A stretch of 64,000 nucleotides of DNA from assembly GCA_965224245.1 (NCBI GenBank), contig OZ245046.1, positions 4,224,001 through 4,288,000 on the forward strand, read 5' to 3'. Made by a program: the position numbers and the translations under genes. A model generated the notes under the pieces. That model worked only from the letters and a program-made list of their open reading frames with translations. It did no database searches and had not been told where the DNA came from. The first letter of the stretch is position 1; every line of letters starts with the position of its first letter. Shown piece after piece: positions 21,141 through 39,258 of the stretch. This stretch comes from Candidatus Eiseniibacteriota bacterium. Its GTDB lineage: Bacteria; Eisenbacteria; RBG-16-71-46; CAZAMP01.

Positions 21141-21186
21141 GGTCGTCTCCTGGATCTCGGCCCTCGGGAATGATACTGCAGGTCGT

Positions 21187-22988: not shown

Positions 22989-24689
22989 TCAGTTCACCTT
23001 GACCGCCCGGACGGACGCGCCGGAGTCACGATCCCTGACGAGGTACACGCCGGGGCTCACCCGGACGCCGCGCACGTCCAGACCGTCCCAGGTCAGGATC
23101 GATCCGGCGCCGGCCGGGAGCGATCGGACGAGACGTCCGCGGGCGTCGAAGACGTCGAGCGTACCGGCGGAGACGCCGTCCATCGTCACCACGAGGGCGC
23201 GGTGGAACGGATTCGGCGCGGCCGACAGCACACCGCCGGCCAGCCCCGGAACGTCACCGACGGCGACCGCCCGATCGAGCGCGAAGTTCAGCGTCGTGTC
23301 GCCGGTGATCGAGACCCCCAGCTCGGTGGCCGAGTCGAACCCGGAGCCCGCCGGTGGATTCGCCGAGACGTCGTAGACGCCGCCGGGGACGCGCACGCGA
23401 TAGAAGCCGGACACTGACGTATCGTCGTCCGGCGTCGGGTAGTGCTTGCCGGCCACCGCGTCGACGAAATCCATGTCCACGTCCGCGAGGGGGCTTCCGT
23501 CACCCGTGACGGTGCCCGACACCACGAACCCCGCCGAGAGCGTGATGTCCCCGAGCGAACGCGACGTCGAGACCACCTCGTCCCACCGGACCGCGGCGGC
23601 CAGCTCGGCTCCGGCCGGCGGGTTGAGGTTGAAGTCGTAGATCCCGCTGGGGATCACGACCGAGAACGTCCCCGACGCGGTCGTGTTGTCGTTGGGCGTG
23701 TATCGCTCGAGCCCGGTGGCGGTGTCGATCACGTCGACGTCGGCGTCCACGAGCGGGAGACCACCGGGGCCCAGGAGTCGACCGGTGACGGTGAGCGCCG
23801 CCCTGAGCACGGTCTCGCCGATGTCGGTGGAGCCGCCGATCGCGACGTCCGGGACGCGCTCGGGTGCGAACGGGCTTGCGGGGGCCGGCTTGAAACGGAA
23901 CTCGTACACGCCGGCCGGGAGGAACACCGACCAGTCCCCGAAGAAATCGCTGTCGTCGCCGGAGAGAAAGCGCTCGACGCCGTCCTCGTCGAGCACGTCC
24001 ACGTCGACGTTGAACACCCCCGCGCCGACCTCGTCCACGACGCGCCCGGTCACCGTGAGGCCGGGGCGCAGGACGAAGGTCTCGAACCCGGGAACGCTCG
24101 TGTCGTAGCTCTCGCGCCACTCCGGGGCGCGAGCGCCGGTGTCGTCGGTCACGATCACGTCGTGGATGCCGACGGGCACCATCACCGCCAGATCCCCGAG
24201 CTCGTCCGGGTCGTCGTCGCGCAGGAAGACGTCGTCGCCGGTGCTGGTGTCGATCAGACGCAAGGTACATGCCACATACGGAGCGCCGCCCTCGTCCTGG
24301 ACGTGAATGGTCAAGAGCGTCCCATCGGGCAGGATCGTCGGCGGGAGCGTGGTGTCCGTCTCCAGATCCACGCTCTCCAGGAACACCGGGGCGTACGAGC
24401 CCCCGGGGGGCCCGAGAACGGTGATGTCGTACCGCCCGGCCGGGATGATCACCTGGAAATAGCCGGTCGCGTCGGTGTGGTCGCCCGTGGGGTCCACCTC
24501 GGAGTCCGTATCCTGGTTAAACCAGTCCAGATCGGCATTTACGATGGGGGCCCCGCCCGTGGTCCGGACGAACCCGTCCACGATCACCGCGTTCGATTCC
24601 GCCGCGAGAGCCACCGCCAGGATGGCGCCGGCAATCCATGCCCGGCGACCCGCGGTCGGGGGGCGCCGCCGATCGGTCCGTTCCGTCAT
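22989..24689 (-). CDS. Secreted protein with five carboxypeptidase-regulatory-like repeats and an FlgD-Ig tail; paralog of the neighbouring gene
   Basis: Signal peptide, five ~85-aa repeats, tail 'APNPF...VFDARGRLVR...WDGLD..G..VSPGVYLVR'. Confidence 0.8.
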   Translation of the reverse strand: MTERTDRRRPPTAGRRAWIAGAILAVALAAESNAVIVDGFVRTTGGAPIVNADLDWFNQDTDSEVDPTGDHTDATGYFQVIIPAGRYDITVLGPPGGSYAPVFLESVDLETDTTLPPTILPDGTLLTIHVQDEGGAPYVACTLRLIDTSTGDDVFLRDDDPDELGDLAVMVPVGIHDVIVTDDTGARAPEWRESYDTSVPGFETFVLRPGLTVTGRVVDEVGAGVFNVDVDVLDEDGVERFLSGDDSDFFGDWSVFLPAGVYEFRFKPAPASPFAPERVPDVAIGGSTDIGETVLRAALTVTGRLLGPGGLPLVDADVDVIDTATGLERYTPNDNTTASGTFSVVIPSGIYDFNLNPPAGAELAAAVRWDEVVSTSRSLGDITLSAGFVVSGTVTGDGSPLADVDMDFVDAVAGKHYPTPDDDTSVSGFYRVRVPGGVYDVSANPPAGSGFDSATELGVSITGDTTLNFALDRAVAVGDVPGLAGGVLSAAPNPFHRALVVTMDGVSAGTLDVFDARGRLVRSLPAGAGSILTWDGLDVRGVRVSPGVYLVRDRDSGASVRAVKVN

Positions 24690-24736: not shown

Positions 24737-24765
24737 AGGGGTGCTCGGCGGGGGGCGCTTGATAC
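24737..24765 (-). promoter_or_regulatory. Putative ECF promoter GTATCA-N17-ACCCCT driving the surface-protein/S8 operon
   Basis: Same spaced motif as three other intergenic sites in the module. Confidence 0.65.
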
Positions 24766-24806
24766 GGCGCCGGGCCAGAATCTCGCGAGGAAATCACGGT
24801 AGGGGC

Positions 24807-24835
24807 GTATCAACCCCCCCACGGATCCAACCCGT
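24807..24835 (+). promoter_or_regulatory. Putative ECF promoter GTATCA-N17-ACCCGT driving the GT/kinase/porin/ABC operon
   Basis: Same spaced motif; back-to-back with the 24737-24765 site. Confidence 0.65.
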
Positions 24836-24875
24836 TCTCCGCACGATGGGGCTCGGTGACGCAAGGGAGAGTCCG

Positions 24876-26030
24876 TTGGGTCGGCGGTACGTGATCTACT
24901 CACACGATGGCTTCGGGATGGGCAACATCCGGCGCAACCACGCGGTGGCGAAGCGGATCGTCGAGCGAGACGCCGACGCCAGCGTGCTGTGCCTGACCAG
25001 CTCCCGCTATCTCCATTTCCTGCCGCGACATCCCCGGATCGAGCTCGTGAAGCTCCCCGAGGTGCTGCGGGTGGGCCGCGGCGAGTACCGCTCTCGGACC
25101 GAGGGAGTGGCCATCCGTCCCCTGCTGGCCGCCCGGCGCGAGATCATCCGGGGAGCGATCAAGGGGTTCGATCCCGACGTGCTCCTGGTGGACAAGACGC
25201 CCGACGGCATCGCCGGCGAGCTCCGACCGCTCCTCGCGGGGCTGGATCGGGATCGCACGCGCGTCGCCCTGATTCTGCGTGACGTCCTGGACGAGCCGCG
25301 GTGGACCCGCGAGTTCTGGGCGCGCACGGGCCAGTACGACTGTCTCACCGAGTCCTACGACGCGGTCACCATTCTCGGAGATGACGCGCTCTTCGACACC
25401 GCCACCGCGTGCGGGCTCGATCGCGTGCCCGGCGTCGACGTCGCATACTGTGGGTACCTCGTCCGCGAGGCCCCCCACGACGACCCGGAAGCCCCCGAGC
25501 CCCTCGGCGACCGGTTTCTGATCTCGGTGGGTGGCGGCGAGGACGGCCTGGAGGTGATGCAAGCCTCCATCCAGGCCCTCTCCTCCATGGCGGCCGGCGA
25601 GCGTCCTGCGATCGACGTCGTGTTCGGGCCGTTCTTTCCGGCCGACGACCGCGATCGGTTGACGGCGACGTTCCAGCGACTGACCGATGCGCGGTGCACG
25701 AGCTTCGAGCGTCATCTCCGCGAGCGCATTCGCACGAGCCGCGGTGTGATCAGCATGGCCGGCTACAACACGGTGTGCGAGATCCTCGAATCGAGCGCCC
25801 CGGCCCTCGTCGTTCCCCGGCGCCACCCCAGCCGCGAGCAGGTCATCCGGGCCTCACGGATGACCGAGGTCGGCATCGTCGACTCGCCGGAGACCGCCGA
25901 GGCCACGCCGGAGCGCATTCGCGACTTCTTCACGTCGCCGAGACCACAGGACCGGAGCCGCTTTCGCCGCGGCGGCCACGACGGGATCGCCGGCCGAGCC
26001 GAGTCCCTCGCGACGCTGGCGCGGTGCTGA
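24876..26030 (+). CDS. GT-B glycosyltransferase (COG4671/GT28-like)
   Basis: 'YSHDGFGMGNIRR', 'PDVLLVDKTP.G', 'SVGGGEDG', 'SMAGYNTVCE', 'VPR....EQ..RA'. TTG start after AAGGGAG; alternative ATG at 24846. Confidence 0.85.
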   Translation: MGRRYVIYSHDGFGMGNIRRNHAVAKRIVERDADASVLCLTSSRYLHFLPRHPRIELVKLPEVLRVGRGEYRSRTEGVAIRPLLAARREIIRGAIKGFDPDVLLVDKTPDGIAGELRPLLAGLDRDRTRVALILRDVLDEPRWTREFWARTGQYDCLTESYDAVTILGDDALFDTATACGLDRVPGVDVAYCGYLVREAPHDDPEAPEPLGDRFLISVGGGEDGLEVMQASIQALSSMAAGERPAIDVVFGPFFPADDRDRLTATFQRLTDARCTSFERHLRERIRTSRGVISMAGYNTVCEILESSAPALVVPRRHPSREQVIRASRMTEVGIVDSPETAEATPERIRDFFTSPRPQDRSRFRRGGHDGIAGRAESLATLARC

Positions 26031-26033
26031 GCG

Positions 26034-28964
26034 ATGCGCGCGATCGACGGCGAGCCGACCGTGAGCGCCGATCTCCGATCCGGCGTCACCGCGCTGATGT
26101 CGGCGGTTCCCTCCGGTGCCCGGATTCTCCGGTTGGACGTCTCCTCGCGTGATCGTCTCAGCGCGCTATACGCCGACGAGGGCGGTGAGCTGGCCGGCGC
26201 GGCGCTCGCACGCGACTCCGGCCGCGTTCGCCTGTTCACGCCGGAAAACGATCCGAGGCTCTTTCCAGCTCCCGGCACGCTGGCGGACATCCTCGCCCGG
26301 GCCTGCGAGGCGGCCGCCGCCCCGGCGGACCAACCGATCGCGCGCGCGGTGGCCTACCGGCCCGGCAAGCGGCTCGTTCTCTCGCTCTCGACCGGCGACG
26401 ACCTCCTCGCGTTCGTGAAGATCCGTCGCGGCCCCGTGCTCACCGACCGCCTGGAGGCGGCATCGCGCAGCGGACTCTGGCCCACGCTTCTCGCGTCGTT
26501 CGGACACGACGCCCTGGCGGTCGAGGTCCGGCGGCCGGTGCCCGGCCGAGCGCTGACCGCCGACGTCACGCGTGGCGACCGCCGAGAACCGGTCACCGGT
26601 CCGCTGGCCGCGTCGCTGGCCGGGTTCGCCACGACCTCCCTCACCGGCCTCTCGATCCCCGAGAGGACCGGCGATCACGCCGCCGCCGAGACCCAACGCA
26701 TGCTGGACAAGGCGGTCCGTCTCGGCATGCTCGCCGACGGCGCCCTCGCCGAGGCGGTCGCGGATGCCGGTGCCCAGCTGACGACGGACGGTTCCGCCGA
26801 GCTGGTCGCCTCACACGGAGATCTTCACGACGGCCAGATCCACCTCGACTCCGCGGCCGTCTCGTGGATCGACGCCGACAGCATCGTGCGAGCGCCCGTC
26901 GAGGCCGACCTGGCGAACCTCGGAGCTCACATTCACCTGCGACGCGTCCAGTCGACGTGGTCGACGCCGTCTCCGTCGGGTCGGGCGGCCGGCCCCGTGA
27001 CCGCCGATCTGGCCTGGGAGCACGCGCTCCGCGACAGCATGCTGCGGTCGCTTCCGCCGCGGCTCGCCGCGTCCTTCTCGACCCGGCGATGGCACGCCTG
27101 GCGACGGCTGACGTTCGCCCGTCTCGCGGCCGTGTACGCGATGCGCCCGGTGTGGCGACCGATCACCGGTGCGCTGAGTGCGCTCGCGTCGGCGCCGCTC
27201 GCGCTCGTTCTCGTCCTCCTGGCGGCGCTCGGAGCGGCGGCCCCCGACGCGCCCGCCGCGTCGCCTCAGCCCCTGGCGCCTCACCATCTCCGGGACGGCG
27301 TCTGGGTCGAGGTGCAGGGCGAGTACCGCCCGGGCAAACGGTTCAAGGTCGAGGAGCTCGATCTGAAGCTCCCGCGCGGCGACGACCGGGTCGAGATCAG
27401 CGGAATCGTGACGGCGATCGACCCCGCGAGCGGCCGGGTGACCGTCATCGGCGTGCCGATCGAGACCGATGCGGAGACCACGCTGGACGGACTGGGCGGC
27501 CTCGAGACCCTCGCGATCGGCACGCTGATCAAGACCTCCGCGCTCCGCCGCTCGGGAGACGGCTTCCGCGCCGGGCACCTCGCCTCGCGCGACCCCGACG
27601 ACGGATGCGAGATCGAGGGCTACCTGACCGACCTGGAGGGCCGCGGCGGTCGCTGGACGTTCGAGGTCAACGGCATCCGCATGCGCCTGTCGTCGGACCC
27701 CGAGATCACGATCGAGCCCGAGGCGCTTCCGTACCTGGCCGCGGTGACCGAGAACGACCGGTCGCGACGCCGCTCCGACGACGACTGGCAGCCGGTCGGC
27801 CAGACGTTTCTCCATCCGTCGCTCTCGATCGGGGGGCGGATCTCCGGTCGTCTGACGTCGGAGAACGAACGCGACCTGAACGTCGACGTCGAGGACGAGC
27901 TCGTCGAGTCGAACCTCCATGCCCGCACGCACGTGCGATGGACGCCCAACCCCTGGTTCAGCGCCTATGCCGAGGTTCGCTGGACGGGTAGTCGCGGCCT
28001 GGACAACCCGTCGTCGATCCCCGACGTGGACCGGTCCGAGTACCAGTCGGGGCCCACGAACGTCCTGGTCCGTACGCGACGCTGGCCGCTCTCGGCCCGG
28101 CTGGGACGGATCGACGTGGAGGACGAGCGCGAGTGGTTCCACGACCAGAACCTCGACGGCATCCGTGTGCGCTGGACCGGCCGCGTGCTCGGCCTGGACG
28201 TCGGCCGCTATCGCACCGACATCACGCCGACCGACCGGAGCGACGACGAGCTCTACTCGATCGCCTCCATCGAGCTGTCGATGACCGACGTCGTACGTCC
28301 GAGCATCCACGTGATCACGCGACGCGATCGGCGCGCACCGGGAGACGAGCGCACGTGGACCGGGATCAGCGCTCCTCTGAGTCTCGGCGATCACGTCGAG
28401 GCGTGGGGGCACGGCGCGGTGGCGCGAGGGGATTACCGCGGCAAGAGCGTTCGCTCGTGGGCATCGGACGGCACGTTGCTGCTCCGGGTCAAACGCCCGC
28501 TTCGGGTGTCCATCTACGGCGGCTACGCGTTCGCCACCGGCGATGCGGACCGGGGCGACGGGATCGATCGCGAGTACCGTGACACGGATCTCGCCGACTA
28601 CTCCGACGCGATGGACGGGCTCAAGAGCTTCCGGTACTACGGCGAGTTCTCAGAGCCCGAGCTGTCGAACGTGCGCATCTGGACCGCCGGGGCCGGTACC
28701 TACCTGTTCTCGTGGCTCTCGCTGGACGCGGTGCTTCACGGGTACCGGCAAGACGAGTTCCGGGACCGATTCCGATCCGAGATCCCGATCCGCCCCACGG
28801 GCGACGACAAGGAGCTCGGCCGCGAGGTCAACGTCATCGCCGGCATCCGTGACGTCGGTCCGATCGACGTCAAGATGGTCTGGAGCTCGTTCGATCCAGG
28901 TCGGGCGTTCGAGACCCGCGACCGTTCGTCGGCCTTCGAGGTCCAGATCGAATGGCGGCGCTGA
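26034..28964 (+). CDS. Fusion of an APH/phosphotransferase-like domain, internal signal-like helix, DUF5666-like beta repeats and an alginate-export (AlgE-like) outer-membrane beta-barrel
   Basis: 'YRPGKR', 'HGDLHDGQ', 'DLANL'; hydrophobic 'APLALVLVLLAALGAAA'; 'VEISGIVTAID', 'EIEGYLTD'; barrel segments 'EREW..DQNLDGIR', 'YAFATGD', 'FRYYGE..EPELSN', C-terminal 'VQIEWRR'. Confidence 0.75.
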   Translation: MRAIDGEPTVSADLRSGVTALMSAVPSGARILRLDVSSRDRLSALYADEGGELAGAALARDSGRVRLFTPENDPRLFPAPGTLADILARACEAAAAPADQPIARAVAYRPGKRLVLSLSTGDDLLAFVKIRRGPVLTDRLEAASRSGLWPTLLASFGHDALAVEVRRPVPGRALTADVTRGDRREPVTGPLAASLAGFATTSLTGLSIPERTGDHAAAETQRMLDKAVRLGMLADGALAEAVADAGAQLTTDGSAELVASHGDLHDGQIHLDSAAVSWIDADSIVRAPVEADLANLGAHIHLRRVQSTWSTPSPSGRAAGPVTADLAWEHALRDSMLRSLPPRLAASFSTRRWHAWRRLTFARLAAVYAMRPVWRPITGALSALASAPLALVLVLLAALGAAAPDAPAASPQPLAPHHLRDGVWVEVQGEYRPGKRFKVEELDLKLPRGDDRVEISGIVTAIDPASGRVTVIGVPIETDAETTLDGLGGLETLAIGTLIKTSALRRSGDGFRAGHLASRDPDDGCEIEGYLTDLEGRGGRWTFEVNGIRMRLSSDPEITIEPEALPYLAAVTENDRSRRRSDDDWQPVGQTFLHPSLSIGGRISGRLTSENERDLNVDVEDELVESNLHARTHVRWTPNPWFSAYAEVRWTGSRGLDNPSSIPDVDRSEYQSGPTNVLVRTRRWPLSARLGRIDVEDEREWFHDQNLDGIRVRWTGRVLGLDVGRYRTDITPTDRSDDELYSIASIELSMTDVVRPSIHVITRRDRRAPGDERTWTGISAPLSLGDHVEAWGHGAVARGDYRGKSVRSWASDGTLLLRVKRPLRVSIYGGYAFATGDADRGDGIDREYRDTDLADYSDAMDGLKSFRYYGEFSEPELSNVRIWTAGAGTYLFSWLSLDAVLHGYRQDEFRDRFRSEIPIRPTGDDKELGREVNVIAGIRDVGPIDVKMVWSSFDPGRAFETRDRSSAFEVQIEWRR

Positions 28965-30601
28965 TGCGATCAACGACGACGAATGCCGATGGACGCGTGC
29001 TCCACCTCGTTCACAGCGGCGCCGACCTGAGCGAGGCGATCGCGCCGGAGACCGGGCTCACGGCGGCGGCTCCCGGCGCCCAGTGGCTGCTCGGTCCCGT
29101 GCTGCCCGACGCCGCGTTCGATCCACCGGATTGGGTCGAGTGGATCCGGGTTCCGGAGCTGGCCACCGAGGGCGCCGACTGGACGACGACCGTGTCGCGC
29201 CTGGTCGAGGCGCTTCGCCCCGCGCGCATCGTCGTCCACCGAGACGTGCACCGGGCGTCGCCGACGCTCGCCGCGACGCTTCATCAGATCTACGGAGACC
29301 GAATGACGATCATGCCGATGGAGGACCTCGCGCGGCCGCTTCGCGTGGGATACGTGCTGAAGAAGTTCCCGCGTTACTCCGAGACCTTCATCCTGCGCGA
29401 GGTCCTTGCCCTGGAGCGGCTCGGGGTGGACGTTCACGTCCTGTCGCTGCACCTGCCCCGGGACGGCCGCTTTCACGGATCGCTCTCCGAGCTCCGCCGG
29501 TCGGTTCACTATCTGGAGGACCGCAGCGCACCGAAGGCGCTCGGCGCCGTCCTGCCGCTTCTCCCCGAAGATCCCGGCGGACGCCGGCGCGTGACCGACC
29601 TGTTCTGGGAGACGCTCGATCGCGGGGATCCTCGCCTCCTCGGGTACCTCGCACGCGGCATCGAGATCGCCGCGCTCGTCCGGGAACGGGGGATCACGCA
29701 CCTGCACGCGCACTTCGCCACGTCGGCCTGCGAGGTCGCTCGCGTCGCGGCCGCGATCGCCGGTGTCACGTACAGCTTCACCGCACACGCGAAGGACATC
29801 TACGCCGACGACGTGGATCGCCGGGGCCTCGATCTGAAGCTCCGCGACGCCGCGTTCGCCGTGACCGTGTGCGATGCCAACGTCGACTATCTCCGGGCGA
29901 TGCACGCGTCCGCCAACGGCACCGTGCGCCGGCTCTTCAACGGAATACGCCTCGATCGGGAGACCGACGCGCGTCCCGCCGGCGAGCACCGCGACGGATC
30001 GGCGCCCGCCGTCGACGTGCTCGCGGTGGGACGCTTCGTGGAGAAGAAGGGCTTCTCTATGCTGCTCGACTCGCTGGCCGAGGTGCGCCGTCGCGGCGTT
30101 CCGTTCTCGTGCCGGATCCTCGGCGACGGCGAGCTGTTCGAGGACGTGCGGGCCCACCGGGATCGCCTCGGGCTCGGAGACGTCGTGGACCTGCCGGGCT
30201 CCGCGTCGTCCGAGCAGATCCGGGCCCAGATGGCGACGGCCGGCTTTCTCGTGTGTCCGTCGATCGTGGCCGGGAACGGCGATCAGGACGCGCTGCCCAC
30301 GGTGCTCCTGGAGGCGATGGCCGCTGGGCTCGCGACGATCGGCACGCGCGTCGGCGGCATCGGCGAGATCCTGAACGGCGGGCGAGCAGGCCGGCTGATC
30401 GATCCCGACCCCGCGGCGCTGACCGACGCCATCTGCGAGCTCCTGACCCGACCGGAGCGGCGCGCGCACTTCGCCTCGGAGGGACGCGCACACGCCGCGG
30501 AGAACTTCGACGTCGATCGAAACGTGGCACGCCTCGCGGAGTGGTTCCGCGGGGCCGGAACGACGGTCCCGTCGGCCGTCCAGGAGGCTCGGTCCTCATG
30601 A
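28964..30601 (+). CDS. GT4 glycosyltransferase (WcaL-like) with a ~125-aa N-terminal extension
   Basis: 'YVLKKFPRYSETFILRE', 'HLHAHFA', 'FTAHAKDI', 'VGRFVEKKG', 'DALPTVLLEAMA'; ATG overlaps the upstream TGA. Confidence 0.88.
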   Translation: MRSTTTNADGRVLHLVHSGADLSEAIAPETGLTAAAPGAQWLLGPVLPDAAFDPPDWVEWIRVPELATEGADWTTTVSRLVEALRPARIVVHRDVHRASPTLAATLHQIYGDRMTIMPMEDLARPLRVGYVLKKFPRYSETFILREVLALERLGVDVHVLSLHLPRDGRFHGSLSELRRSVHYLEDRSAPKALGAVLPLLPEDPGGRRRVTDLFWETLDRGDPRLLGYLARGIEIAALVRERGITHLHAHFATSACEVARVAAAIAGVTYSFTAHAKDIYADDVDRRGLDLKLRDAAFAVTVCDANVDYLRAMHASANGTVRRLFNGIRLDRETDARPAGEHRDGSAPAVDVLAVGRFVEKKGFSMLLDSLAEVRRRGVPFSCRILGDGELFEDVRAHRDRLGLGDVVDLPGSASSEQIRAQMATAGFLVCPSIVAGNGDQDALPTVLLEAMAAGLATIGTRVGGIGEILNGGRAGRLIDPDPAALTDAICELLTRPERRAHFASEGRAHAAENFDVDRNVARLAEWFRGAGTTVPSAVQEARSS

Positions 30602-31830
30602 CGAAGCCCCACGTCGCCTACGTCGTCGCGGATCCCGGCATCGACTGGCGCAGCGCGAAGGGCGCCGCGGTCCACGTCCGCGAGATGGTCCGCGCCATGT
30701 GCGACATCGGATGTCGCGTCTCGGTCGTCACCACGCGAGGCGTCGCGTCCATCGGCGAGGACGAGCCCGAGTTCGCCCGTCTCGAAGCGTGTCGCGCCGT
30801 CGACCGCCACTTCGGGGCGGCTCCCCGTGAGGAACGCCCCGGCGCGTTGCGTGAGATCCGCACGCTGGCCAAGATGCCGGTCGTCGCCGACGCCGTTCTG
30901 GCGCTCGACGCCGCGGATCGCATCGACGTGGTCTACGAACGCTACTCGCTGTGGAGCGACGTCGGGGCCCGGGTCTCCGGCGAGCTCGGCGTGCCGCTGG
31001 TGGTGGAGATGAACGCGCCCCTCATCGACGAGCAGACGTCCTATCGATCGCTGGCCCTGACCGACGTCGCCGAGCACGTGCTCGGTCGCACGATGTCGAG
31101 CGCCGAGCGGATCGTCGTGGTCAGCCGGGCGCTCGAGCACTACCTCGCGGCGCGGGGCATCGATCGCGAGCGCGTTCGGATCCTGCCGAACACCGCGGAG
31201 CGAGAGCGATTCTTCCGATCCCCTCACCGCGCGCCGGCACCGGGCGAGCCGTTCACGGTCGGCTTCCTGGGAAGCCTCAAGCCCTGGCACGGCGTCGAGC
31301 AGTTCCTGGACGTGTTCGCCACCGTGCATGCGGCACACCCGAACTGCCGGCTGGAGATCGTGGGGGACAGCCGCCATCGCGCGTCGCTCGAAGAGTGGGT
31401 GCGCGCGAACGAGCTCGGGGGCGCGGTCCGCTTCCTCGGACACGTCGAGCACGAACGCGTTCCCGAGATCCTGGAACGGTGGGATCTGGCGGTCGCGCCC
31501 TACCCCGATCTCCCCGGATTCTACTTCTCGCCCCTGAAGCTGGCCGAGGCGCTGGCCGCCGGACGTCCGGTGATGGCCGCCGGCATCGGCGACATTCCCG
31601 AGATGCTCGGGAACGGGGACCACGGCGTGCTCGTTCCCCCGAGCGACTGGCAGCGCTGGACGCAAGCGCTCACGGCTCTCGTGACCGATCCGAGCAAGCT
31701 GTCTCCGCTCGCCGACGCGGCAGAACGACATTCGCGCGACTGGAGCTGGCGAACTCACGCGGCCGCGAGCCTCGAGGGCCTCGTCATGAACGGCGCGCCG
31801 CCACGCGAGCTGTCTCGTGCCGCGGATTGA
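30598..31830 (+). CDS. GT4 glycosyltransferase
   Basis: 'KGAAVHVRE', 'VYERYSLW', 'EMNAPL', 'GFLGSLKPWHG', 'FYFSPLKLAE'; ATGA overlap. Confidence 0.9.
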   Translation: MTKPHVAYVVADPGIDWRSAKGAAVHVREMVRAMCDIGCRVSVVTTRGVASIGEDEPEFARLEACRAVDRHFGAAPREERPGALREIRTLAKMPVVADAVLALDAADRIDVVYERYSLWSDVGARVSGELGVPLVVEMNAPLIDEQTSYRSLALTDVAEHVLGRTMSSAERIVVVSRALEHYLAARGIDRERVRILPNTAERERFFRSPHRAPAPGEPFTVGFLGSLKPWHGVEQFLDVFATVHAAHPNCRLEIVGDSRHRASLEEWVRANELGGAVRFLGHVEHERVPEILERWDLAVAPYPDLPGFYFSPLKLAEALAAGRPVMAAGIGDIPEMLGNGDHGVLVPPSDWQRWTQALTALVTDPSKLSPLADAAERHSRDWSWRTHAAASLEGLVMNGAPPRELSRAAD

Positions 31831-33613
31831 CGTCCGGACCGCCGCGCTGTGGCGGCGGGAGCAGCTCTCGCGGGCGTGGCACGTCATCCGCACGTTCGCG
31901 CCGTACGCGAAGCGGCACCGCGCCCTGGCCCTGGGGGCGTTCGCCAGCATCGTCGCCGGCGCCGGAATCCGCGTACTTCAGCCCCTGCCGCTGAAGTACC
32001 TGTTCGACGACGTACTGATCCCGTCGGCCGACACGATCGCCCGGTCCGAGCCGGTCGCGTTTCCAGCGCGGACGATCGCACTCATCTGCGTGGCGATTCT
32101 CGCGGCCGGCGTGGCGGCGGGGTTTGCGTTCTACGGCGAGCGCGTGCTCGCCGCCCGCGCGGGCCAGGCCATCGTGTCGTCGATCCGACGGAGCCTGTTC
32201 GGTCACGTGCTCCGGCTACCGCTGAGCGACTTTCGCACGCTCAAGCGCGGGGAGATCCTGAACCTCCTGGGACGCGACGTGGAGCACCTCCGCGAGCTCC
32301 TGGTCAACGTCATCCTCGACGTCGCCGGGTCGGTCGTGCACGTGGTGACGATGCTGACGATCATGTTCCTGCTGAACCCGCGGCTGAGCCTGGTCGCCCT
32401 GGCCATACTGCCCCTGGTCGGGCTGGCGTCGGTCGAGGTCTCGTTCACGATGCGCGACGTGGCGCGCAAGCAGCGGCGGCGCGAGAGCCTCCTTCTCAGC
32501 TCGGCCCAGAACGTGCTCGACGCGATGCCGATCGTGAAGATCTTCGGGCGTGAGCGCTCGGAGCGGCGGCGCTTCGCGCGCGACAACCGGGCCACGCGTC
32601 GAGCGGGGGTCAAGCTGAAGCGGCTCGAGGCCGCCCTCGTGCGCCGCGTCGAGGTGCTGCTGGCGCTCGCCACGTGCGTGTTCATCTTCGTCGGCGTCCG
32701 TGAGGTGTGGCTGGGCGAGCTGAGCGCCGGCGGCCTGTTGCTCTTCGCGTCGTATCTGAAGTCCTTCCAGAAGCCCATCCGCCGGCTCACCCGCAGTGCG
32801 GCCAAGCTCTCGCGCGCGACCACGTGCGGCGAGCGCGTCGCCGAAGCCTTCGCACGTCCGATCGAGCTCGATACCGAGGGTCCCGAGGTCGAGGAGTGCG
32901 CGCGCTCGCTGTCGGGCGAGGTGACGTTCGAGGACGTTTCGCTTCGCTACCCCGACGGTACCGTCGCGCTCCGGGACGTGTCCTTTCACGTCCCGGCCGG
33001 GTCGGTGGTCGCGCTGATCGGTCCGAGCGGCGCGGGAAAGTCCACGCTCGTGTCCCTGATCACGCGCCTGATCGATCCCACCTCCGGCATCGTTCGATAC
33101 GACGGACAGGACGGCACGAGGATCCCGCGCGGCGTCGTGCGCCGCCACGTGACCGCCGTGTTCCAGGAGAGCTACCTCTTCGACGGCACCATCGCCGAGA
33201 ACCTGCGCTACGGCCGCGAGGACGCCGACGACGCGGATCTCCGCGAGCACGCCGTTCGGGCCAATGCGTGGTCGTTCGTGGAGGCACGAGGCGACGTGCT
33301 CGAGGCGCCCGTCGGGGACTTCGGCCGGCAGTTCTCCGGGGGTGAGCGCCAGCGCCTCACGGTTGCACGGGCACTCCTGCGCAACGCGCCGATCGTGCTC
33401 CTCGACGAGCCGACCCGGGGACTCGACGACGTCTCCGCGGCCGCGGTCCGTCGGGCGCTCGTGGACTACGGTCGGGGACGCACGGTATTCTGGGCCACCC
33501 ACGACCCCGAGGAGGTCTCTCACGCCGACCTCACGCTCGTCGTGACCGAGGGTCGAGCCCGTCTGCACCGGGGTGCCCCTCAGGCGGCGCTCGGGGAGGT
33601 ACCGGCATCGTGA
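31817..33613 (+). CDS. ABC exporter with fused TMD and NBD (MsbA/Sav1866-like)
   Basis: About 6 TM segments, then GPSGAGKST, FSGGERQR, LLDEPT. Confidence 0.92.
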   Translation: MPRIDVRTAALWRREQLSRAWHVIRTFAPYAKRHRALALGAFASIVAGAGIRVLQPLPLKYLFDDVLIPSADTIARSEPVAFPARTIALICVAILAAGVAAGFAFYGERVLAARAGQAIVSSIRRSLFGHVLRLPLSDFRTLKRGEILNLLGRDVEHLRELLVNVILDVAGSVVHVVTMLTIMFLLNPRLSLVALAILPLVGLASVEVSFTMRDVARKQRRRESLLLSSAQNVLDAMPIVKIFGRERSERRRFARDNRATRRAGVKLKRLEAALVRRVEVLLALATCVFIFVGVREVWLGELSAGGLLLFASYLKSFQKPIRRLTRSAAKLSRATTCGERVAEAFARPIELDTEGPEVEECARSLSGEVTFEDVSLRYPDGTVALRDVSFHVPAGSVVALIGPSGAGKSTLVSLITRLIDPTSGIVRYDGQDGTRIPRGVVRRHVTAVFQESYLFDGTIAENLRYGREDADDADLREHAVRANAWSFVEARGDVLEAPVGDFGRQFSGGERQRLTVARALLRNAPIVLLDEPTRGLDDVSAAAVRRALVDYGRGRTVFWATHDPEEVSHADLTLVVTEGRARLHRGAPQAALGEVPAS

Positions 33614-34917
33614 CGACGTCCGTGCCCCGGTTCATTCCGTCTCGCTGGCTCGGCGAGACTCCGGATGCACCGCGCGATCCGGATCTGCCCGAGGCCGACC
33701 TCCTGACCGATCGCGCCACGCTGGCGAGCTGGCTCTCCGCGTCGTGGAACGTCCCGGGCGCCGTCGATCCGTCGGAGATCGTGTACGAATCGGTTCGCTA
33801 CAAGCCCGGCGTGCGGCTGACCGCGGTGACCCGGCTGGGCGCCCTGCGAGTCACCTGGCGGGCGTTCCCCACAGGCGACGCCGAGGTTGCGTGGCAGAAG
33901 CTGATCGACGGCGGCGTTCGCGGACAGGATCGCCTGCGCGCGGGATCCATCATCGGGCTCCGCTTCCCCCAGGACCACGTGCTGAGCGGGCTGACGCGTC
34001 TCGTCCCCGGCCGGCTCGGCGCGACGTACGTCCGCCGCCTGATCCCCGGCCTGACCGACGAGCGCACGCGCCTCCGCTCCTACAGCTTCGACCCCACGCT
34101 GATCCGCTACAAGCCGGAGCGACACGCCGTGTTCCATCTGACGTTCACGGTGCGCGACGCCGGTGACGGACACAAGGAGCGCCGCCGGGCGATCGCGCGC
34201 GTGCTCCCGCCCGGCTCGCCCCCGCCGCCGGCGCCGGAGACGTCGTTCACCCCGCGGCCCCTGGCCTGGGACGCCGACAACGGCGTGTCGATCGAGTCGT
34301 TCGTGCCGGGCCGCACGCTGGCCGCCGTGCTCGCGGGGGGCGGTGACGACGAGCTCGCGCCGGATGCCGGCACGGTGATCGCGCGCGATGACGCCCTCAC
34401 CATGGTCGGGTCGGCGTTGGCCGCCCTTCACGCGCTCGGCGCGGTCGGGCGACGGATCCTCGAACCGCCGAGGGCACACGTCCCGCTCTGGGAACCGGCA
34501 ATCCGAGACGACGTCTCGCGCGTGATCGCCGCGCTCGCGGCAGCCGCCTCGCCGGTGGCGTCGCCGACCACCGTCCACGGAGACCTGCATCCCGGTCAGG
34601 TCCTGTTCGACGGCGAGAGGTGGTGGCTCGTCGATCTGGACAAACGAGGCCGGGCGGCGCCCGAGCGCGATCTCGGAGACCTGATCGCCGCGCTCCTCGA
34701 GGCCGACGCCGGCGCGAGCCTCCAGGAGCTCCGCGCGCCGCTCGTCGCGGGCTACCGGCGGGCGGGGGGTGGCACGCTCTCGGAGTCGGCGCTACGCACG
34801 TGGACCGCGGCCGCCGTCGTGCGCCGGGCCGAGGCGCCGCTACGCAACCTCCATCCGGACCGCCACGCGATCGCCCGGCGCCTGCTCGCGCTGGCGGAGG
34901 ACATCGCCGGTACCTGA
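33610..34917 (+). CDS. APH/choline-kinase-like phosphotransferase
   Basis: Two 'RYKP' motifs, 'VHGDLHPGQV', 'LVDLD', 'ERDLGD'. Confidence 0.8.
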   Translation: MTTSVPRFIPSRWLGETPDAPRDPDLPEADLLTDRATLASWLSASWNVPGAVDPSEIVYESVRYKPGVRLTAVTRLGALRVTWRAFPTGDAEVAWQKLIDGGVRGQDRLRAGSIIGLRFPQDHVLSGLTRLVPGRLGATYVRRLIPGLTDERTRLRSYSFDPTLIRYKPERHAVFHLTFTVRDAGDGHKERRRAIARVLPPGSPPPPAPETSFTPRPLAWDADNGVSIESFVPGRTLAAVLAGGGDDELAPDAGTVIARDDALTMVGSALAALHALGAVGRRILEPPRAHVPLWEPAIRDDVSRVIAALAAAASPVASPTTVHGDLHPGQVLFDGERWWLVDLDKRGRAAPERDLGDLIAALLEADAGASLQELRAPLVAGYRRAGGGTLSESALRTWTAAAVVRRAEAPLRNLHPDRHAIARRLLALAEDIAGT

Positions 34918-34921
34918 CCGA

Positions 34922-37726
34922 TCAGGTCCCGTGGACCGCGAACGCTCCCCAGTAGAACGGATGATCCCAGCGATCGCGCACCTCGCGACGCGCCGAACGC
35001 AGTGCCTCCAGGGGATCCCGCCGGTCCGCCGCCGCGTAGCCACGGTGGAACGCGCTCATCAGGGCGAGCGTCGACTCGTCGTGAACGCGCCAGTTGCTCG
35101 CCACGAGCTGCCGGACGCCGGACGCCAGGAACGCGTGCGCGACGCCGGAGAGATCGTCGCCTCGACCCGAGAACACCTGGCCGGTGTTGCACGCGCTCAG
35201 CACGACCAGATCCGCGCGCATCCGCAGATCGAGCACGTCGGCCATGAAGAGCGCGCCGTCGGTGGTGCTGAGTCGCGAGAACAGCGGGTTGTCCTCGCGG
35301 AACACGCCGTGGGTCGCCAGGTGCACGAGATCGTACCCCGGTAGCTCGCGCACCAGCTCGCTCGACGAGGGATCCAGCCTCACGTCCACCGTCGTGTCCG
35401 CCACGCCCGCGAGGCTGTCGGAGACGGCGGCCACCTCGGACGCCACGTGAACGGGCGTGTTGCGCACGGTTCCGGCGACCAGCACGCGTGCGAGCGGGCG
35501 GCGACGTCTCGCGATCGCCAGCACGTCGGCCGTGGGCAGCCGCGAGAGATGCCAGCGCGACTCGACGTAGACGTAACCGTCGTGGAGACACTCGAAGGGC
35601 ACGTGGTGCAGGCTCCGATGCGGAACCAGATGGAGGTGCGCGACGTCCGCCAGCTCGTCCTCGAACGGACGCACGAGGCCGTCGTAGAGCGGACCGAGCG
35701 TGGACAGCGACGAACGCGTCATGAAGTCGAGGTCGACGACGCCGTCCCCGACCATGGCCATCGTGTCCAGCTGGAAGCGGTTCTCGCCGAGGAGCCGGTG
35801 GACGTCGCCGGGCGCGATCTCGAGCACGCGCCAGGCGCATCGATCCCGGCGGGCGCAGATGGCCACGATGCGTTCGTCGGTCTCGAAGTAGAGGATCGCC
35901 GCGTCCGTCGGACCGAGGGTCTCCATCACGAGGTCGAGCGAGTGTGCGTCCGCGCCACCGGTGCCGCTCGAGCGCCGGGCGTCGCGTCGACGCATCAGCT
36001 CGGCGATCCGGCGCTCGGTGCGGCGGATGTCCCTCTGGACCGGCTCGCGGACGTCGCTGGCGGCACCTTCGTGTTCGAGATCCTGCAGACGCTGCGTGAG
36101 CGCTCCCAGCACCGCCCGCTCCTCGGCCAGAGCCGCGTCGTCGGCGTCGCCGCCGATCGGGTCGGAGCGATGGAGACGCTCGCGATGGGCGCGCCCCCGC
36201 GCGCGCTCGAAGAGCGCGTAGAGCCGGGTCGCCGAGGTACGTCGGCCCGCGGACAGGACGTCGATCAGGTCGTGGTACGCGCGGACGTGATCCTCGAACG
36301 CACGGGACCGGTACTCGATTCCGGGGATGAGCTGGAGCTGCCGCTCGACCTCCCGGACGGCGCGGCGCAGGCGGCGGCCGGCCTCGGCGTGCTCGCCGCG
36401 GGCGCGGGCGATGCGGCCTGCCAGCGACCAGATGCGTCCCCGATCTCCCGGCGATGCGGACGCGGCCCGGGCCAGCGCCTCGTCCACCGCGCGCTCGGCC
36501 CGGGTGAGCCGACCGGCCATCACGTGTCCGATGGCGATCAGGCGGTGCCCCTCGGCGCCGATCGAGTCCACGTCGCGACGGTGCATCGACCGGAGCGCGC
36601 GGCGCGCATGCCGGATCGCGGTCGACGGGTCCCCGAGCATCAGCCGCGCCCGCGCCGCGAGGAGCGCCGCGCTCGCGGCGCGCGGCGCCATGCGTTGCCC
36701 CCGGAAGTACGCCCACGGCTCGGCGAGCCGCTCCAGTGCCAGCGTGGGCTCGCCCGCGATCAGGTGGGCCCGGGCGATCAGGACGCGCGAGAGCGCCGCG
36801 TCCAGGTCCAGCCCGTCACGCGCGAACTGCTCGGCGGCGAGGCGTGCGTGCTCGATCGCCTCGGCCGCCATCGACAGCTCGAGGTACACGTGCGCGCGCT
36901 CCCGCTCGGTGGCGGCCACGAGATCCGAGGCACCCTGGGAGCCGAAGTGAGCGCGGGAGGACTCCAGCAGCTCGAGTGCACTCCTGAAGTCACCGCCCAG
37001 GCGCTGGAGGTGGGCGCGGTCGAGCTCGGACAGACCGACGAACCGCTCGAGCCCGAGGCGGCGCGCCAGGCGCTCCGCCTCCAGGAACAGCGCGCGGGCG
37101 TCACGCAGCCGCAGGAGCTTCGTGCAGGCGACCGCCTGGTTGATCAGGAGGCTGACGCGTGTCTCGTCGTGCCCGTCGAGACGCCCCAGCGCGTCGGCGG
37201 CGACACGGTACCAGTCGAACGCCTCGTCGTAGCGCTCGGCGTGATAGGCGTTGCTGCCCTGGACGCCGGCGAGCTTGCCCAGGTAGACGTCGTCACGGGC
37301 GCGGGTCAGAAGTCGTCTCGCCTGCTCGGCGCGGCGACGGGCCTCGTCGAGGCGGCCCACGAGCCCCAGCACACCCGTCCACCCAACCAGCGTCTGACCC
37401 AGGAGACGCTCCTCGTGCGCGGCGTTCGCGATGTCGACCGAGCGCGCGTAGGCGTCGCTTGCGCGCTTGAACCGCCCCATGAACGCCAGCGCCTCGCCGG
37501 CGCTCCGCCAGGCCATCGCGAGGGCGAAGGGGTCGACGTCGTCCTGAACGCGCTCCACGCACCGGCGGAACGCACCGGCCAGCGTGTGCGCCTCCCGCGG
37601 ATCGCTGGCCAGCAGCCCGGCGATGCGATCGCGCGTCGCCTGCGCCTCCTGGCGATCGAGCGGCTCAGCACGCGCGTCCAGCCACCGGTGGAGCTCGGCG
37701 GCGGTCATGTCGGGTATGGAGGTCAC
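34922..37726 (-). CDS. TPR-CHAT caspase-like cysteine protease
   Basis: Long Ala/Arg/Leu-rich TPR-like region; CHAT motifs 'LVPHRSLHHVPF', 'VHLATHG' (His), 'VVLSACNTG' (Cys), 'ASNWRVHD', 'HPFYWGAF'. Confidence 0.93.
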   Translation of the reverse strand: MTSIPDMTAAELHRWLDARAEPLDRQEAQATRDRIAGLLASDPREAHTLAGAFRRCVERVQDDVDPFALAMAWRSAGEALAFMGRFKRASDAYARSVDIANAAHEERLLGQTLVGWTGVLGLVGRLDEARRRAEQARRLLTRARDDVYLGKLAGVQGSNAYHAERYDEAFDWYRVAADALGRLDGHDETRVSLLINQAVACTKLLRLRDARALFLEAERLARRLGLERFVGLSELDRAHLQRLGGDFRSALELLESSRAHFGSQGASDLVAATERERAHVYLELSMAAEAIEHARLAAEQFARDGLDLDAALSRVLIARAHLIAGEPTLALERLAEPWAYFRGQRMAPRAASAALLAARARLMLGDPSTAIRHARRALRSMHRRDVDSIGAEGHRLIAIGHVMAGRLTRAERAVDEALARAASASPGDRGRIWSLAGRIARARGEHAEAGRRLRRAVREVERQLQLIPGIEYRSRAFEDHVRAYHDLIDVLSAGRRTSATRLYALFERARGRAHRERLHRSDPIGGDADDAALAEERAVLGALTQRLQDLEHEGAASDVREPVQRDIRRTERRIAELMRRRDARRSSGTGGADAHSLDLVMETLGPTDAAILYFETDERIVAICARRDRCAWRVLEIAPGDVHRLLGENRFQLDTMAMVGDGVVDLDFMTRSSLSTLGPLYDGLVRPFEDELADVAHLHLVPHRSLHHVPFECLHDGYVYVESRWHLSRLPTADVLAIARRRRPLARVLVAGTVRNTPVHVASEVAAVSDSLAGVADTTVDVRLDPSSSELVRELPGYDLVHLATHGVFREDNPLFSRLSTTDGALFMADVLDLRMRADLVVLSACNTGQVFSGRGDDLSGVAHAFLASGVRQLVASNWRVHDESTLALMSAFHRGYAAADRRDPLEALRSARREVRDRWDHPFYWGAFAVHGT

Positions 37727-37823
37727 GGCGTCTCTCGGGAAACGGTCGAGGCGACCGGCCTGACGACGGGATGGCCGGCGGCGACCCCCGGGGCCCGAGT
37801 GTGACCGATCCCGGACCCGGCGG

Positions 37824-38480
37824 CTAGGAGCCGCCTTCCGAGGGAACGTTCACGAGCACGGACTGGTCGCCGATCCGGAGCCGTAGCGACCGGACACCGG
37901 CCGGCAGGTCGGCCAGCCGGAAGCGGCCCAGCTCGCCGATCGGTGCCTCGAGGCTCTGTCCGTCGCCTTCCACGGACACCAGCCCGCCGGGCTCGATCGA
38001 CGCCCCGCTCCTCGGAACGAGCTGCCCGTCGATCGTGGTCGACCCGTCCGCGCTCCGGGTGAGATTGATGGAGATGACCAGATCCGGGGTCTCGTACACG
38101 AGCATCCTGGGGGTGGCGACGCCCGATCCGCGAAGGTTGAGCGCCGGCTGGAGCGAGTCGCGAACGAGAGCCGCCGCCACCTCACGCGCGGCCTCCGACA
38201 GTGACGACAGCGCCCGGATCGCCAGCTCGCGGAGCGTCGTGCGATCGGGGCGAGAGGTCTCTGCGCGCAGGAACGCGAGGGAGCGCTCGATCGTGTCGGC
38301 CGTGGGCGTGAACGCGCGAGCGTCGGACATGGCGGACGAGAGCATGGCGATGCGCACCAGCTCGTCGCAACAGGTCTCGCAGCCCGCGACGTGGCTCTCG
38401 ATCGCCGGGTCGGTCTCCAGATGATGCGCCCAGAGCGCCTCCCAATCGGGATGACCGGCGTGCTGCGTGTCAGAACTCAT
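37824..38480 (-). CDS. Soluble anti-sigma-like protein with an N-terminal ZAS/zf-HC2 motif and a C-terminal carboxypeptidase-regulatory-like beta domain
   Basis: 'HVAGCETC' (HX3CX2C); no TM segment; ATGA-coupled to the sigma gene; C-terminus 'GELGRFRLADLPAG'. Confidence 0.75.
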   Translation of the reverse strand: MSSDTQHAGHPDWEALWAHHLETDPAIESHVAGCETCCDELVRIAMLSSAMSDARAFTPTADTIERSLAFLRAETSRPDRTTLRELAIRALSSLSEAAREVAAALVRDSLQPALNLRGSGVATPRMLVYETPDLVISINLTRSADGSTTIDGQLVPRSGASIEPGGLVSVEGDGQSLEAPIGELGRFRLADLPAGVRSLRLRIGDQSVLVNVPSEGGS

Positions 38481-39076
38481 GGCCTCGAGTCTCCCTCAGG
38501 CTCGCGTGCGTCGTCGCGCTCGCTTGCAATGAACAACGTCGAGAGCTGTTTCAGGCACCGCCCCCGCGTGGGACCGATGCTCCCGACCGGCAGTCCCTCG
38601 CGCTCGGAAATCGCCTCGTAGCTGGGCCGAGGATCCTCCAGATAGAGCATCCTGAGGAGCCGCCGGCATCGTTCGCTGATCGCGTCCAGCGCATCGTCGA
38701 GTCGGCTCATGTCCTCGAAGCGCTCCAGGGCCTCGGCGAAGTCCGGGTCCGACACGCCGGCGAGCACCTCCAGGAACGGGTCGTCCCCGGCGAGGCGAAC
38801 CTCCCGGCGACCCGCCGCAATCCGCTGCAGCGCGACCCGCCGCGCGATCACGTAGACCCACGACGCGAGCCGATCGGCTCGACGAAGCCGGCCGATCGCC
38901 CCGTGCACGGCCACGAGCGTGTCCTGCAGGACCTCCTCGTGCTCGGATGCGTCGAGTCCGACCTTGTGGGCAGCGAAGTAGACGAGCCGGCCGTACGAGC
39001 GCACGAACTCCCGCCATGCCGCATCCTCCCCGCGAGCGAGGGCCTCGACCAATGCATCCGGCGCCGTGTCCGTCAC
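38477..39076 (-). CDS. ECF sigma-70 family RNA polymerase sigma factor
   Basis: Region 2 'GEDAAWREFVRSYGRLV..EEVLQDT..LASWVYVIARR'; region 4 'RCRRLLRMLY..PSYEAIS..GLPVGSIGPTRGRCL'; AGGAG SD before the GTG. Confidence 0.93.
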   Translation of the reverse strand: MTDTAPDALVEALARGEDAAWREFVRSYGRLVYFAAHKVGLDASEHEEVLQDTLVAVHGAIGRLRRADRLASWVYVIARRVALQRIAAGRREVRLAGDDPFLEVLAGVSDPDFAEALERFEDMSRLDDALDAISERCRRLLRMLYLEDPRPSYEAISEREGLPVGSIGPTRGRCLKQLSTLFIASERDDAREPEGDSRP

Positions 39077-39108
39077 GGGTAGAAGCTCCTAAGCTATTGA
39101 TGCTTCTT

Positions 39109-39138
39109 ACTCTAGACGGACCAGAGCCGCGCGGTCAA
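39109..39138 (-). promoter_or_regulatory. Sigma70-like promoter TTGACC-N18-TAGAGT upstream of the ECF sigma gene
   Basis: Near-consensus hexamers 33-62 bp upstream of the GTG. Confidence 0.55.
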
Positions 39139-39176
39139 CGATTGCTGGCCCCGGATGTCCTCCGGGCGGCTTGCAG

Positions 39177-39205
39177 AGAAGTGCATCCGGGCCCTCGGTT
39201 GATAC
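39177..39205 (-). promoter_or_regulatory. Putative autoregulatory ECF promoter GTATCA-N17-ACTTCT
   Basis: Shared spaced motif upstream of the sigma/anti-sigma/CHAT operon. Confidence 0.65.
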
Positions 39206-39229
39206 ATGCATTCCCGGCCTGGACGGCGC

Positions 39230-39258
39230 GTATCAGATGTGCGCGGGCGCCAACGTGT
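39230..39258 (+). promoter_or_regulatory. Putative ECF promoter GTATCA-N17-ACGTGT, probably giving a leaderless mRNA
   Basis: Shared motif; ATG 39264 lies 6 nt after the final T and has no SD. Confidence 0.65.

Follow-up and report, generated by a model that had tools for sequence, protein, structure and literature searches.

Among the extracytoplasmic function (ECF) sigma factors, group ECF54 has been catalogued as actinobacterial (100%), with a carboxypeptidase-regulatory-like protein encoded at +1, subtilase and CHAT/TPR proteins as further neighbours, no putative anti-sigma factor, and predicted −35 (GTATCAG) and −10 (CTCC) promoter elements (PMC7826278, accessible portion); its exemplar is SFT86700.1 of Geodermatophilus amargosae. 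The group is listed in a review as probably regulated by proteolysis (PMC8999054, accessible portion), and the accessible portion of PMC8103513 holds nothing further on ECF54. The subject here is a 64,000-nt stretch from Candidatus Eiseniibacteriota bacterium (the window, meaning the whole stretch), in which four copies of GTATCA-N17-AC-N3-T, spanning 24737..39258 as first read, lie in two back-to-back pairs and, by comparison with relatives, are very probably promoters of an ECF54-like sigma factor with a −35 element GTATCA, a 15-nt spacer and a −10 element xxAC-N3-T. A first-pass annotation had proposed the pattern as a candidate ECF recognition motif; the sites do behave as ECF promoters would, are conserved in position and match ECF54 in the −35 element, which leaves only the −10 variant as different from what was published.

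Other described systems resemble parts of the locus. The Csx29/Csx30/CASP-sigma system of type III-E CRISPR, source of the working model used here, has in common with it a TPR-CHAT protease, a soluble inhibitor with a sigma-binding N-terminus, and several target motifs in the locus (PMC10028731, accessible portion); Csx29 itself resembles the window protein weakly, in the protease domain only (E 6e-4), and no Cas genes were found among the Pfam matches of the 59 window open reading frames scanned. DdvS/DdvA of Myxococcus xanthus pairs an ECF sigma factor with a zinc-type anti-sigma factor, in a paper that mentions CHAT domains often; DdvA is a transmembrane protein, whereas the candidate anti-sigma factor and the protease of the window are separate soluble proteins (PMC11506125, accessible portion). 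SigW/RsiW, RpoE/ChrR and SigL/RslA share the N-terminal His-x3-Cys-x2-Cys domain, but the +1 protein of the window differs from these class I zinc anti-sigma factors: it has a carboxypeptidase-regulatory-like C-terminal domain, and neither a membrane segment nor a cupin was detected in it. The ECF54 literature, in its accessible portions, yielded no glycosyltransferase regulon, anti-sigma factor or 3′-end promoter; the supplementary tables and logos of PMC7826278 may hold more.

The window shares with ECF54 the carboxypeptidase-regulatory-like gene at +1, a TPR-CHAT gene at +2 and the −35 hexamer GTATCA (4/4 sites). It differs in its host, a diderm with lipid A and not an actinobacterium, as judged from LpxC (E 1e-85) and from FlgD-type C-terminal tails on 441 of 5098 called proteins; in the zinc anti-sigma domain of its +1 protein; and in a glycosyltransferase/ABC/kinase island that is linked across the phylum. 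The subtilase gene, placed by the ECF54 description at +2 or −1, lies 17 kb from the window sigma gene, in the same island, and its product has a secretion-type tail; a subtilase gene is at −1 of a sigma paralogue elsewhere in the genome and near the sigma gene in most of the larger relative loci, and a Nonomuraea locus (L037), whose ECF54 layout was assigned from gene context, has GTATCAG upstream of its subtilase gene. Because three listed features (taxon, −10 element, no anti-sigma factor) do not hold here, the sigma factor is called ECF54-like and not a member of the group, the likeness having been judged from the −35 element and the neighbouring genes.

Four sites in two divergent pairs

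An exact search recovered the four copies with the sequences and identical spacing first reported, and no other match in the window:

24737..24765, minus strand: P1, putative ECF-type promoter (GTATCA, 15 nt, GCACCCCT) directed toward the secreted-protein/subtilase operon; rank 11 of 49 on the relatives-only model (see below)
24807..24835, plus strand: P2, putative ECF-type promoter (GTATCA, 15 nt, CAACCCGT), with the GT28-like gene starting 69 nt on; rank 9 of 49 on the same model
39177..39205, minus strand: P3, putative ECF-type promoter (GTATCA, 15 nt, GCACTTCT) directed toward the sigma/anti-sigma/TPR-CHAT genes; rank 1 of 49 on the same model
39230..39258, plus strand: P4, putative ECF-type promoter (GTATCA, 15 nt, CAACGTGT) directed toward the GT28/kinase fusion; rank 16 of 49 on that model, the weakest site here

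The left-hand pair (P1/P2) separates a rightward glycosyltransferase/exporter operon from a leftward secreted-protein/subtilase operon, and the right-hand pair (P3/P4) separates the leftward sigma operon from the rightward GT28/APH fusion unit. The −10 elements read GCAC or CAAC, then N3-T. In shuffled versions of the window 0.05 matches are expected and none of 100 reaches four, a figure that overstates the case because the pattern was derived from these same sites. The hexamer GTATCA occurs 12 times in the window, and the remaining eight occurrences, including those at 7908 and 55854 to which the first-pass annotation had drawn attention, are without the downstream element. That annotation's description of the sites as intergenic and pointing into operons, one of them before the sigma gene, agrees with the calls of a codon-usage gene caller. 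The longest open frames from 24741 and 39171 overlap the two plus-strand sites; within the former, the alignment with homologues begins only at about 24876, at a TTG preceded by a Shine-Dalgarno sequence, and the latter has an uncertain start, its first ATG being at 39264. A start 6 nt past the last T of P4 would land on the A of this in-frame ATG, and the P4 transcript is possibly a leaderless mRNA. An intergenic GTATCA at 21176 (minus strand) and a CTATCA at 41108 (plus strand) were considered and rejected as sites, the −10 element being absent from both.

Placement of the motif, not its number, is non-random in the 6.94-Mb genome. The pattern has eight matches, against 1–12 for other spacers from 10 to 25, so the raw count lies at the background frequency that had been named beforehand as grounds for discarding the motif; the placement does not. 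Four of the eight cluster within 14.6 kb (1 of 200,000 simulations), and five are intergenic with a same-strand gene no more than 300 nt downstream (0–2 for other spacers from 11 to 24), the site at 39230 being dropped by this filter solely through the gene caller's choice of start.

Conservation of the motif around related sigma genes

Of 153 genomes from the phylum, 62 have homologous sigma factors (a genome-contig search with the single sigma factor as query had returned one distant, uninformative locus). All hexamers were counted, unseeded, in 46 phylum loci from other genomes, and GTATCA came out on top in two places. One is the sigma 3′-end zone, taken as 240 nt of coding strand past the conserved region-4 cysteine, where 24 of 45 loci have it against 2.0 expected and 13 have the variant CTATCA; the other lies upstream of the sigma gene, with the motif facing away from it (16 of 46, 2.5 expected). 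These and all other enrichment figures given here overstate, because the relatives are kin and not independent. Of 41 such GTATCA sites, not filtered for a −10 element, 15 have AC-N3-T at spacer 17 and seven have it at spacer 18, against 0–2 at the other spacers from 12 to 21. The AC-N3-T −10 element is thus real, and relatives show two or three such classes, CG[T/A]C after 16 nt being the other main one. Among 80 metagenome loci fetched without taxonomic limit, of which 72 could serve for 3′-end counts, the sigma 3′ end carries GTATCA in 14 (2.2 expected) and the variant GTATTT in 19 (1.8 expected).

Conservation at orthologs, on which the first-pass annotation had staked the motif, thus holds by position and strand at the sigma 3′ end and upstream facing away, but GTATCA faces the sigma gene itself in only 3 of 46 relatives. 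The accompanying remark that autoregulation is typical of ECF sigma factors suits the window, where P3 precedes the sigma gene; in relatives autoregulation appears atypical, and the usual site is in the sigma gene's own 3′ end, from which the anti-sigma and protease genes would be driven.

In several loci (for example L006, L007, L011, L012, L039–L044, L047, L050, L052, L053, and L055) the −35 hexamer stands exactly 33 nt past the region-4 cysteine codon and in frame, GTA TCA reading as Val-Ser and CTA TCA as Leu-Ser, and CTATCA at this position is always followed by CGTC. The last sigma codons of relatives with a 3′-end site therefore seem to contain an embedded promoter. A mere Val-Ser coding constraint was rejected as the origin of GTATCA, since many sites are out of frame or beyond the stop. 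The residue directly before the G-S/G-I-G-P motif of region 4 is neither Val nor Ile in 14 of the 19 GTATTT loci (L125, L127, L131, L134, L144, L145, L148, L151, L153, L155, L157, L158, L161, and L184) and is Val, Ile or Met in all 15 GTATCA loci compared, which makes it a possible specificity residue, with kinship confounding the comparison. Upstream of the sigma gene in L029 (genome G027) and L090 (G045), opposed GTATCA sites overlap, forming a near-palindrome with a further site, an arrangement in which promoter interference is possible.

The sigma operon of the window is laid out as follows:

38477..39076, minus strand: ECF sigma factor, ECF54-like, 199 aa; region 4 GSIGPTRGRCL; Pfam Sigma70_r2, TIGR02937
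39109..39138, minus strand: sigma-70-type promoter (TTGACC-N18-TAGAGT) located past P3 and ahead of the sigma start; one found, 0.0 in shuffles
38522..38527, minus strand: GCAAGC, about where many relatives and the paralogue carry GTATCA or CTATCA in the sigma 3′ end
37824..38480, minus strand: +1 gene, candidate anti-sigma factor, 218 aa, overlapping the sigma stop; zinc anti-sigma N-terminus, carboxypeptidase-regulatory-like C-terminus
34922..37726, minus strand: +2 gene, TPR-CHAT caspase-like protease lacking a signal peptide, with His806 and Cys846; start possibly at 37708

The sigma factor has regions 2 and 4 only, as ECF sigma factors do, scores above the TIGR02937 cut-off, and matches the solved ECF structures 6in7, 8z6g and 2q1z. 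Its internal 3′-end promoter has apparently been lost, to judge from GCAAGC at the corresponding place, and a sigma-70-type promoter is present in addition to P3. A general sigma-70 promoter before the sigma genes of relatives was unsupported (5 of 48 in sense, 8 in reverse).

A second sigma factor is encoded in the genome at G000:C1:3577030-3577554, 45% identical and with region 4 GSIGPSRGRCL, and its gene is preceded by the identical two hexamers at the same spacing (TTGACC/TAGAGT, N18). Its cassette (G000:C1:3573373-3579231; L001:6373-12232) comprises a subtilase gene divergent from the sigma gene, a zinc anti-sigma gene and a TPR-CHAT gene, with one GTATCA directed toward the subtilase gene and one in frame in the last sigma codons; both have TC-type −10 elements (GGTCCAC and CATCTGC after 16 nt), that is, TC after 18 nt. 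Because this second, similar sigma factor exists, assignment of the four sites to the window sigma factor is likely and not certain.

The 49 GTATCA-N17-AC sites of the genome were ranked with a model trained on relatives only, part of whose training set was hand-picked through a pattern already demanding [A/T]C; for this reason the unfiltered −10 count among the 41 sites deserves more trust. P3, before the window sigma gene, ranks first, and ranks 2–4 fall to unlinked sites before genes for FlgD-tailed proteins (G000:C1:4080622, 4935899, 381910). Ranking with a mixed model of two spacers, which excluded the register of the window (its sites at 549–1085 of 1258), was set aside as invalid as a test.

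Candidate anti-sigma factor, protease and target genes

The +1 protein is probably an anti-sigma factor, in view of its sequence relatives and a structural model. A homologue search with the window protein as query returned only itself, and +1 relatives were therefore taken from the sigma loci. A His followed by C-x2-C occurs near the N-terminus of 38 of 44 +1 proteins, and conserved positions in the alignment comprise H10, H30, C34 and C37 together with a loop, L105-x2-D108...R117...R125; in the window protein the zinc ligands are H30, C34 and C37, and the loop reads LVxDS..R..PRxL with R117. The family profile matches RsiW (5wuq, 3e-5) and ChrR (2q1z, 4e-4) and, more weakly, 3hug, which is listed only as a membrane protein and is presumably RslA. 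The match of DdvA structure 8rlz to the profile is non-significant (E 0.65); DdvA has a periplasmic TPR-CHAT part. Pfam assigns PF13620 to 8 of 42 +1 proteins and zf-HC2 to 4 of 42, and the window copy matches neither. Hydropathy shows no membrane or signal segment in the +1 and CHAT proteins.

A model of sigma residues 1–185 with +1 residues 1–100 scores 0.84, against 0.29 for the best control, with at least 93% agreement in contacts between runs and a partner predicted local distance difference test (pLDDT) score of 80–81. Of 157 solved complexes 116 attain this level, as do 2 of 215 mismatched pairs; because similar complexes of ECF sigma factors with zinc anti-sigma factors have already been solved, the score indicates likeness and not binding. 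The modelled interface involves mainly +1 residues 43–91, beyond the zinc ligands. The +1 protein of Nonomuraea L037 is homologous (family profile 95.9%) and lacks the zinc motif, although its LxxDS..R..RxL loop and C-terminal domain are retained; 3 of 42 aligned phylum +1 proteins (L008, L010, L045) also lack the motif. Its absence from the actinobacterial +1 protein may explain why no anti-sigma factor was recognised there.

Wherever the pattern matched, the CHAT protease of the locus has an intact His-Cys dyad. The TPR and CHAT parts are in two different reading frames in Nonomuraea L037:1703-4532, and the whole genome that contains the window has 16 CHAT-domain genes.

The genes under P2, P4 and P1 are, in that order:

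24876..26030, plus strand: GT28-like glycosyltransferase, first gene under P2
26034..28964, plus strand: DUF5666 and alginate-export-type outer-membrane protein, under P2
28952..31830, plus strand: two GT4 glycosyltransferases (28952-30601 and 30598-31830), under P2
31817..33613, plus strand: ABC exporter of MsbA-like architecture, under P2
33610..34917, plus strand: APH-fold phosphotransferase, under P2
39264..41081, plus strand: GT28-like/APH-fold fusion, under P4; start uncertain
41160-41723, plus strand: DUF4920 gene, after the GT28/APH fusion
22989-24689, minus strand: carboxypeptidase-regulatory-repeat protein 1, with signal-like N-terminus and FlgD-type C-terminal tail, under P1
21187-22971, minus strand: carboxypeptidase-regulatory-repeat protein 2, under P1
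19650..21140, minus strand: S8 subtilase with a tail of type IX secretion system (T9SS)/FlgD type, third gene under P1
18575-19540, minus strand: flavin adenine dinucleotide (FAD) oxidoreductase gene, after the subtilase gene

GT28-like homologues are found in 38 of the 153 phylum genomes, and GTATCA lies at most 400 nt upstream of them in 9 of 29 loci (1.06 expected), six of the nine at −64 to −81, compared with −69 in the window. Of the 37 other GT28 genomes, at least 16 carry a homologous sigma gene no more than about 20 kb away on one contig, nine of these back to back with the GT28 gene. The count comes from 20 of the 37, inspected over long stretches and picked for proximity or for a site; among the rest of these 20, one has anti-sigma, CHAT and subtilase genes at a contig end and three have none. 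By this comparison the sigma, anti-sigma, CHAT, subtilase and glycosyltransferase/ABC/kinase genes form a recurring island. The glycosyltransferase island may resemble Synechocystis sll1722-1726. Elsewhere in the window, a gene at 4134-6275 (minus strand) encodes a major facilitator superfamily transporter in fusion with a lipid A acyltransferase-like domain, and a GT4 gene lies downstream of it.

Members of the regulon probably occur outside the locus as well. The genome-wide scan that the first-pass annotation had called for yields unlinked candidate sites before genes for FlgD-tailed proteins, out of a raw count that is at background. Sense GTATCA before FlgD-tailed genes is borderline (28 against 14; other genes 72 against 73; Fisher p 0.056). 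Upstream regions give two peaks at spacer 16, CAC[C/T] before eight genes and [C/G]GTC before six, against 0–3 at other spacers; the peaks fit two sigma factors with two −10 classes, in small numbers and with the CAC pattern partly chosen post hoc. Unlinked candidates of one class are at G000:C1:4080622(+), 381910(+), 4935899(−), 419667(−) and 3465818(−), and those of the other at G000:C1 4950237(+), 562129(−), 206121(−), 5044428(−), 3161896(+) and 3998758(+). They mostly precede genes for FlgD-tailed secreted proteins (propeller, LVIVD and BNR types), and the genes after 4080622 and 381910 are paralogues of each other.

Weighing the readings and a working model

Taken as a whole, the likely best explanation is that the four sites are promoters of the adjacent ECF54-like sigma factor, working in the manner modelled below. 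Several results weigh against it. The seventh −35 base, G in the published GTATCAG, is G in only one of the four sites, and the published −10 CTCC is unlike xxAC-N3-T; among relatives, CTCC occurs at a small number of sites (L029, L032). On the relatives' model three of the four sites are middling (ranks 9, 11 and 16), the raw genome-wide match number is no higher than background, and 20 of 29 GT28 homologues are without a nearby GTATCA. The metagenome loci show no enrichment at the two upstream positions (3 and 4 of 71, 2.65 expected; the short loci L124, L163 and L196, slicing artefacts, were left out), and kinship inflates the enrichments that were found. A quick tree joins the window sigma factor to three actinobacterial ones, one of them from L037 (Shimodaira–Hasegawa-like approximate likelihood ratio test [SH-aLRT] 94), and places it, on a long branch, among relatives with CG[T/A]C after 16 nt and not with those that share the spacing of the window; the paralogue is in the same clade, and descent does not decide which sigma factor reads which site. 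The loops of the CHAT protease and of the anti-sigma candidate, compared across loci, share no motif.

That the paralogue reads the sites mainly, or also, with the window operon downstream in a cascade or in a shared regulon, is rather improbable. Such a reading would draw on the near-identity of the two proteins in region 4, their common clade, the paralogue's own anti-sigma, CHAT and subtilase genes, and the −10 tolerance seen in L006, where one sigma factor has both CGTC and CGAC sites. It sits poorly with the paralogue's own sites, which have TC after 18 nt and not AC after 17, with the two separate upstream peaks (N16-CAC[C/T] and N16-[C/G]GTC), and with the glycosyltransferase island of relatives, which adjoins a sigma gene. 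We therefore regard it as likely that the window sigma factor is the main reader. Binding of some other regulator, in place of a sigma factor, is very improbable: the promoter reading does rest on sequence comparison, and a similar site precedes a gene for a protein containing a helix-turn-helix elsewhere in the genome (G000:C1:3465818), but the motif has two parts at a fixed spacing, is specific to one strand and not palindromic, and it travels with the sigma family inside and outside the phylum, its −35 variants CTATCA and GTATTT following sub-lineages. A chance pattern fitted afterwards, for which the background count and the derivation from the four sites would speak, has a negligible likelihood given the independent positional conservation in relatives and the agreement with the published −35 prediction.

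A further alternative concerns the trigger alone and is compatible with the promoter claim: the sigma factor would be released by oxidation or zinc loss, with the CHAT protease and the subtilase as outputs. This is possible, if doubtful. The RsiW/ChrR-like zinc motif of the +1 protein would suit it, as would the 3′-end motif of relatives, from which the CHAT gene would itself be transcribed along with the anti-sigma gene, and soluble zinc anti-sigma (ZAS) factors released by oxidation have been described (PMC8999054, accessible portion). It is harder to square with the +1 proteins that lack the zinc motif (in L008, L010 and L045, and in L037 with loop and C-terminal domain kept), with an interface modelled mostly at residues 43–91, after the zinc ligands, and with a CHAT dyad that is intact wherever the pattern was found.

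In the working model that accompanies the preferred reading, basal expression of the sigma operon would come from the sigma-70 promoter, and the soluble zinc-finger +1 protein would hold the sigma factor inactive. A signal sensed through the TPR repeats would activate the cytoplasmic CHAT protease, which would cut the anti-sigma factor in the loop between its two domains, R117 being the best candidate position. By analogy with Csx29/Csx30/CASP-sigma, the chances that the CHAT protease is the activator are evenly balanced, and a cut at R117 in particular is a tentative suggestion. The freed sigma factor would then fire both back-to-back promoter pairs, giving an operon that builds, phosphorylates and exports a glycan, secreted proteins, the subtilase, the sigma operon itself and probably a few unlinked secreted proteins; the overall response would be remodelling of the cell surface or matrix. 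In most relatives the sigma factor would induce its inhibitor and protease and not itself, and in the window self-amplification would be added.

The motif itself is no surprise, because its −35 element was already predicted for ECF54. What is new here is the −10 variant, the candidate anti-sigma factor, an island of target genes that is conserved, and a promoter lying within the sigma 3′ end; comparison across loci shows conservation in motif and position, in gene content and in the anti-sigma-like build of the +1 protein. In the literature, in its accessible portions, ECF54 is a catalogued group with a predicted promoter, proposed proteolysis and no recognised inhibitor (PMC7826278, PMC8999054). 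The locus and its relatives supply testable parts, namely a defined promoter with natural variants, a conserved target operon, a protease whose dyad is intact, and a candidate anti-sigma factor in which a cut site can be proposed. A broader and speculative proposal is that ECF54-type cassettes are widespread caspase-gated sigma switches, independent of clustered regularly interspaced short palindromic repeats (CRISPR), in which the unrecognised +1 gene would encode the anti-sigma factor, a promoter usually embedded in the last sigma codons would serve the inhibitor and protease genes and provide negative feedback, surface glycans and secreted proteins would be the output, and paralogues would be kept apart by a −10 element shifted by one base and with T and A exchanged, the window being a rewired copy that had given up the embedded promoter for an upstream, self-amplifying one. 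If the working model is true, caspase-like proteases would gate sigma factors outside CRISPR defence, and the ECF54-type group would extend to diderm bacteria and offer orthogonal sigma/promoter pairs.

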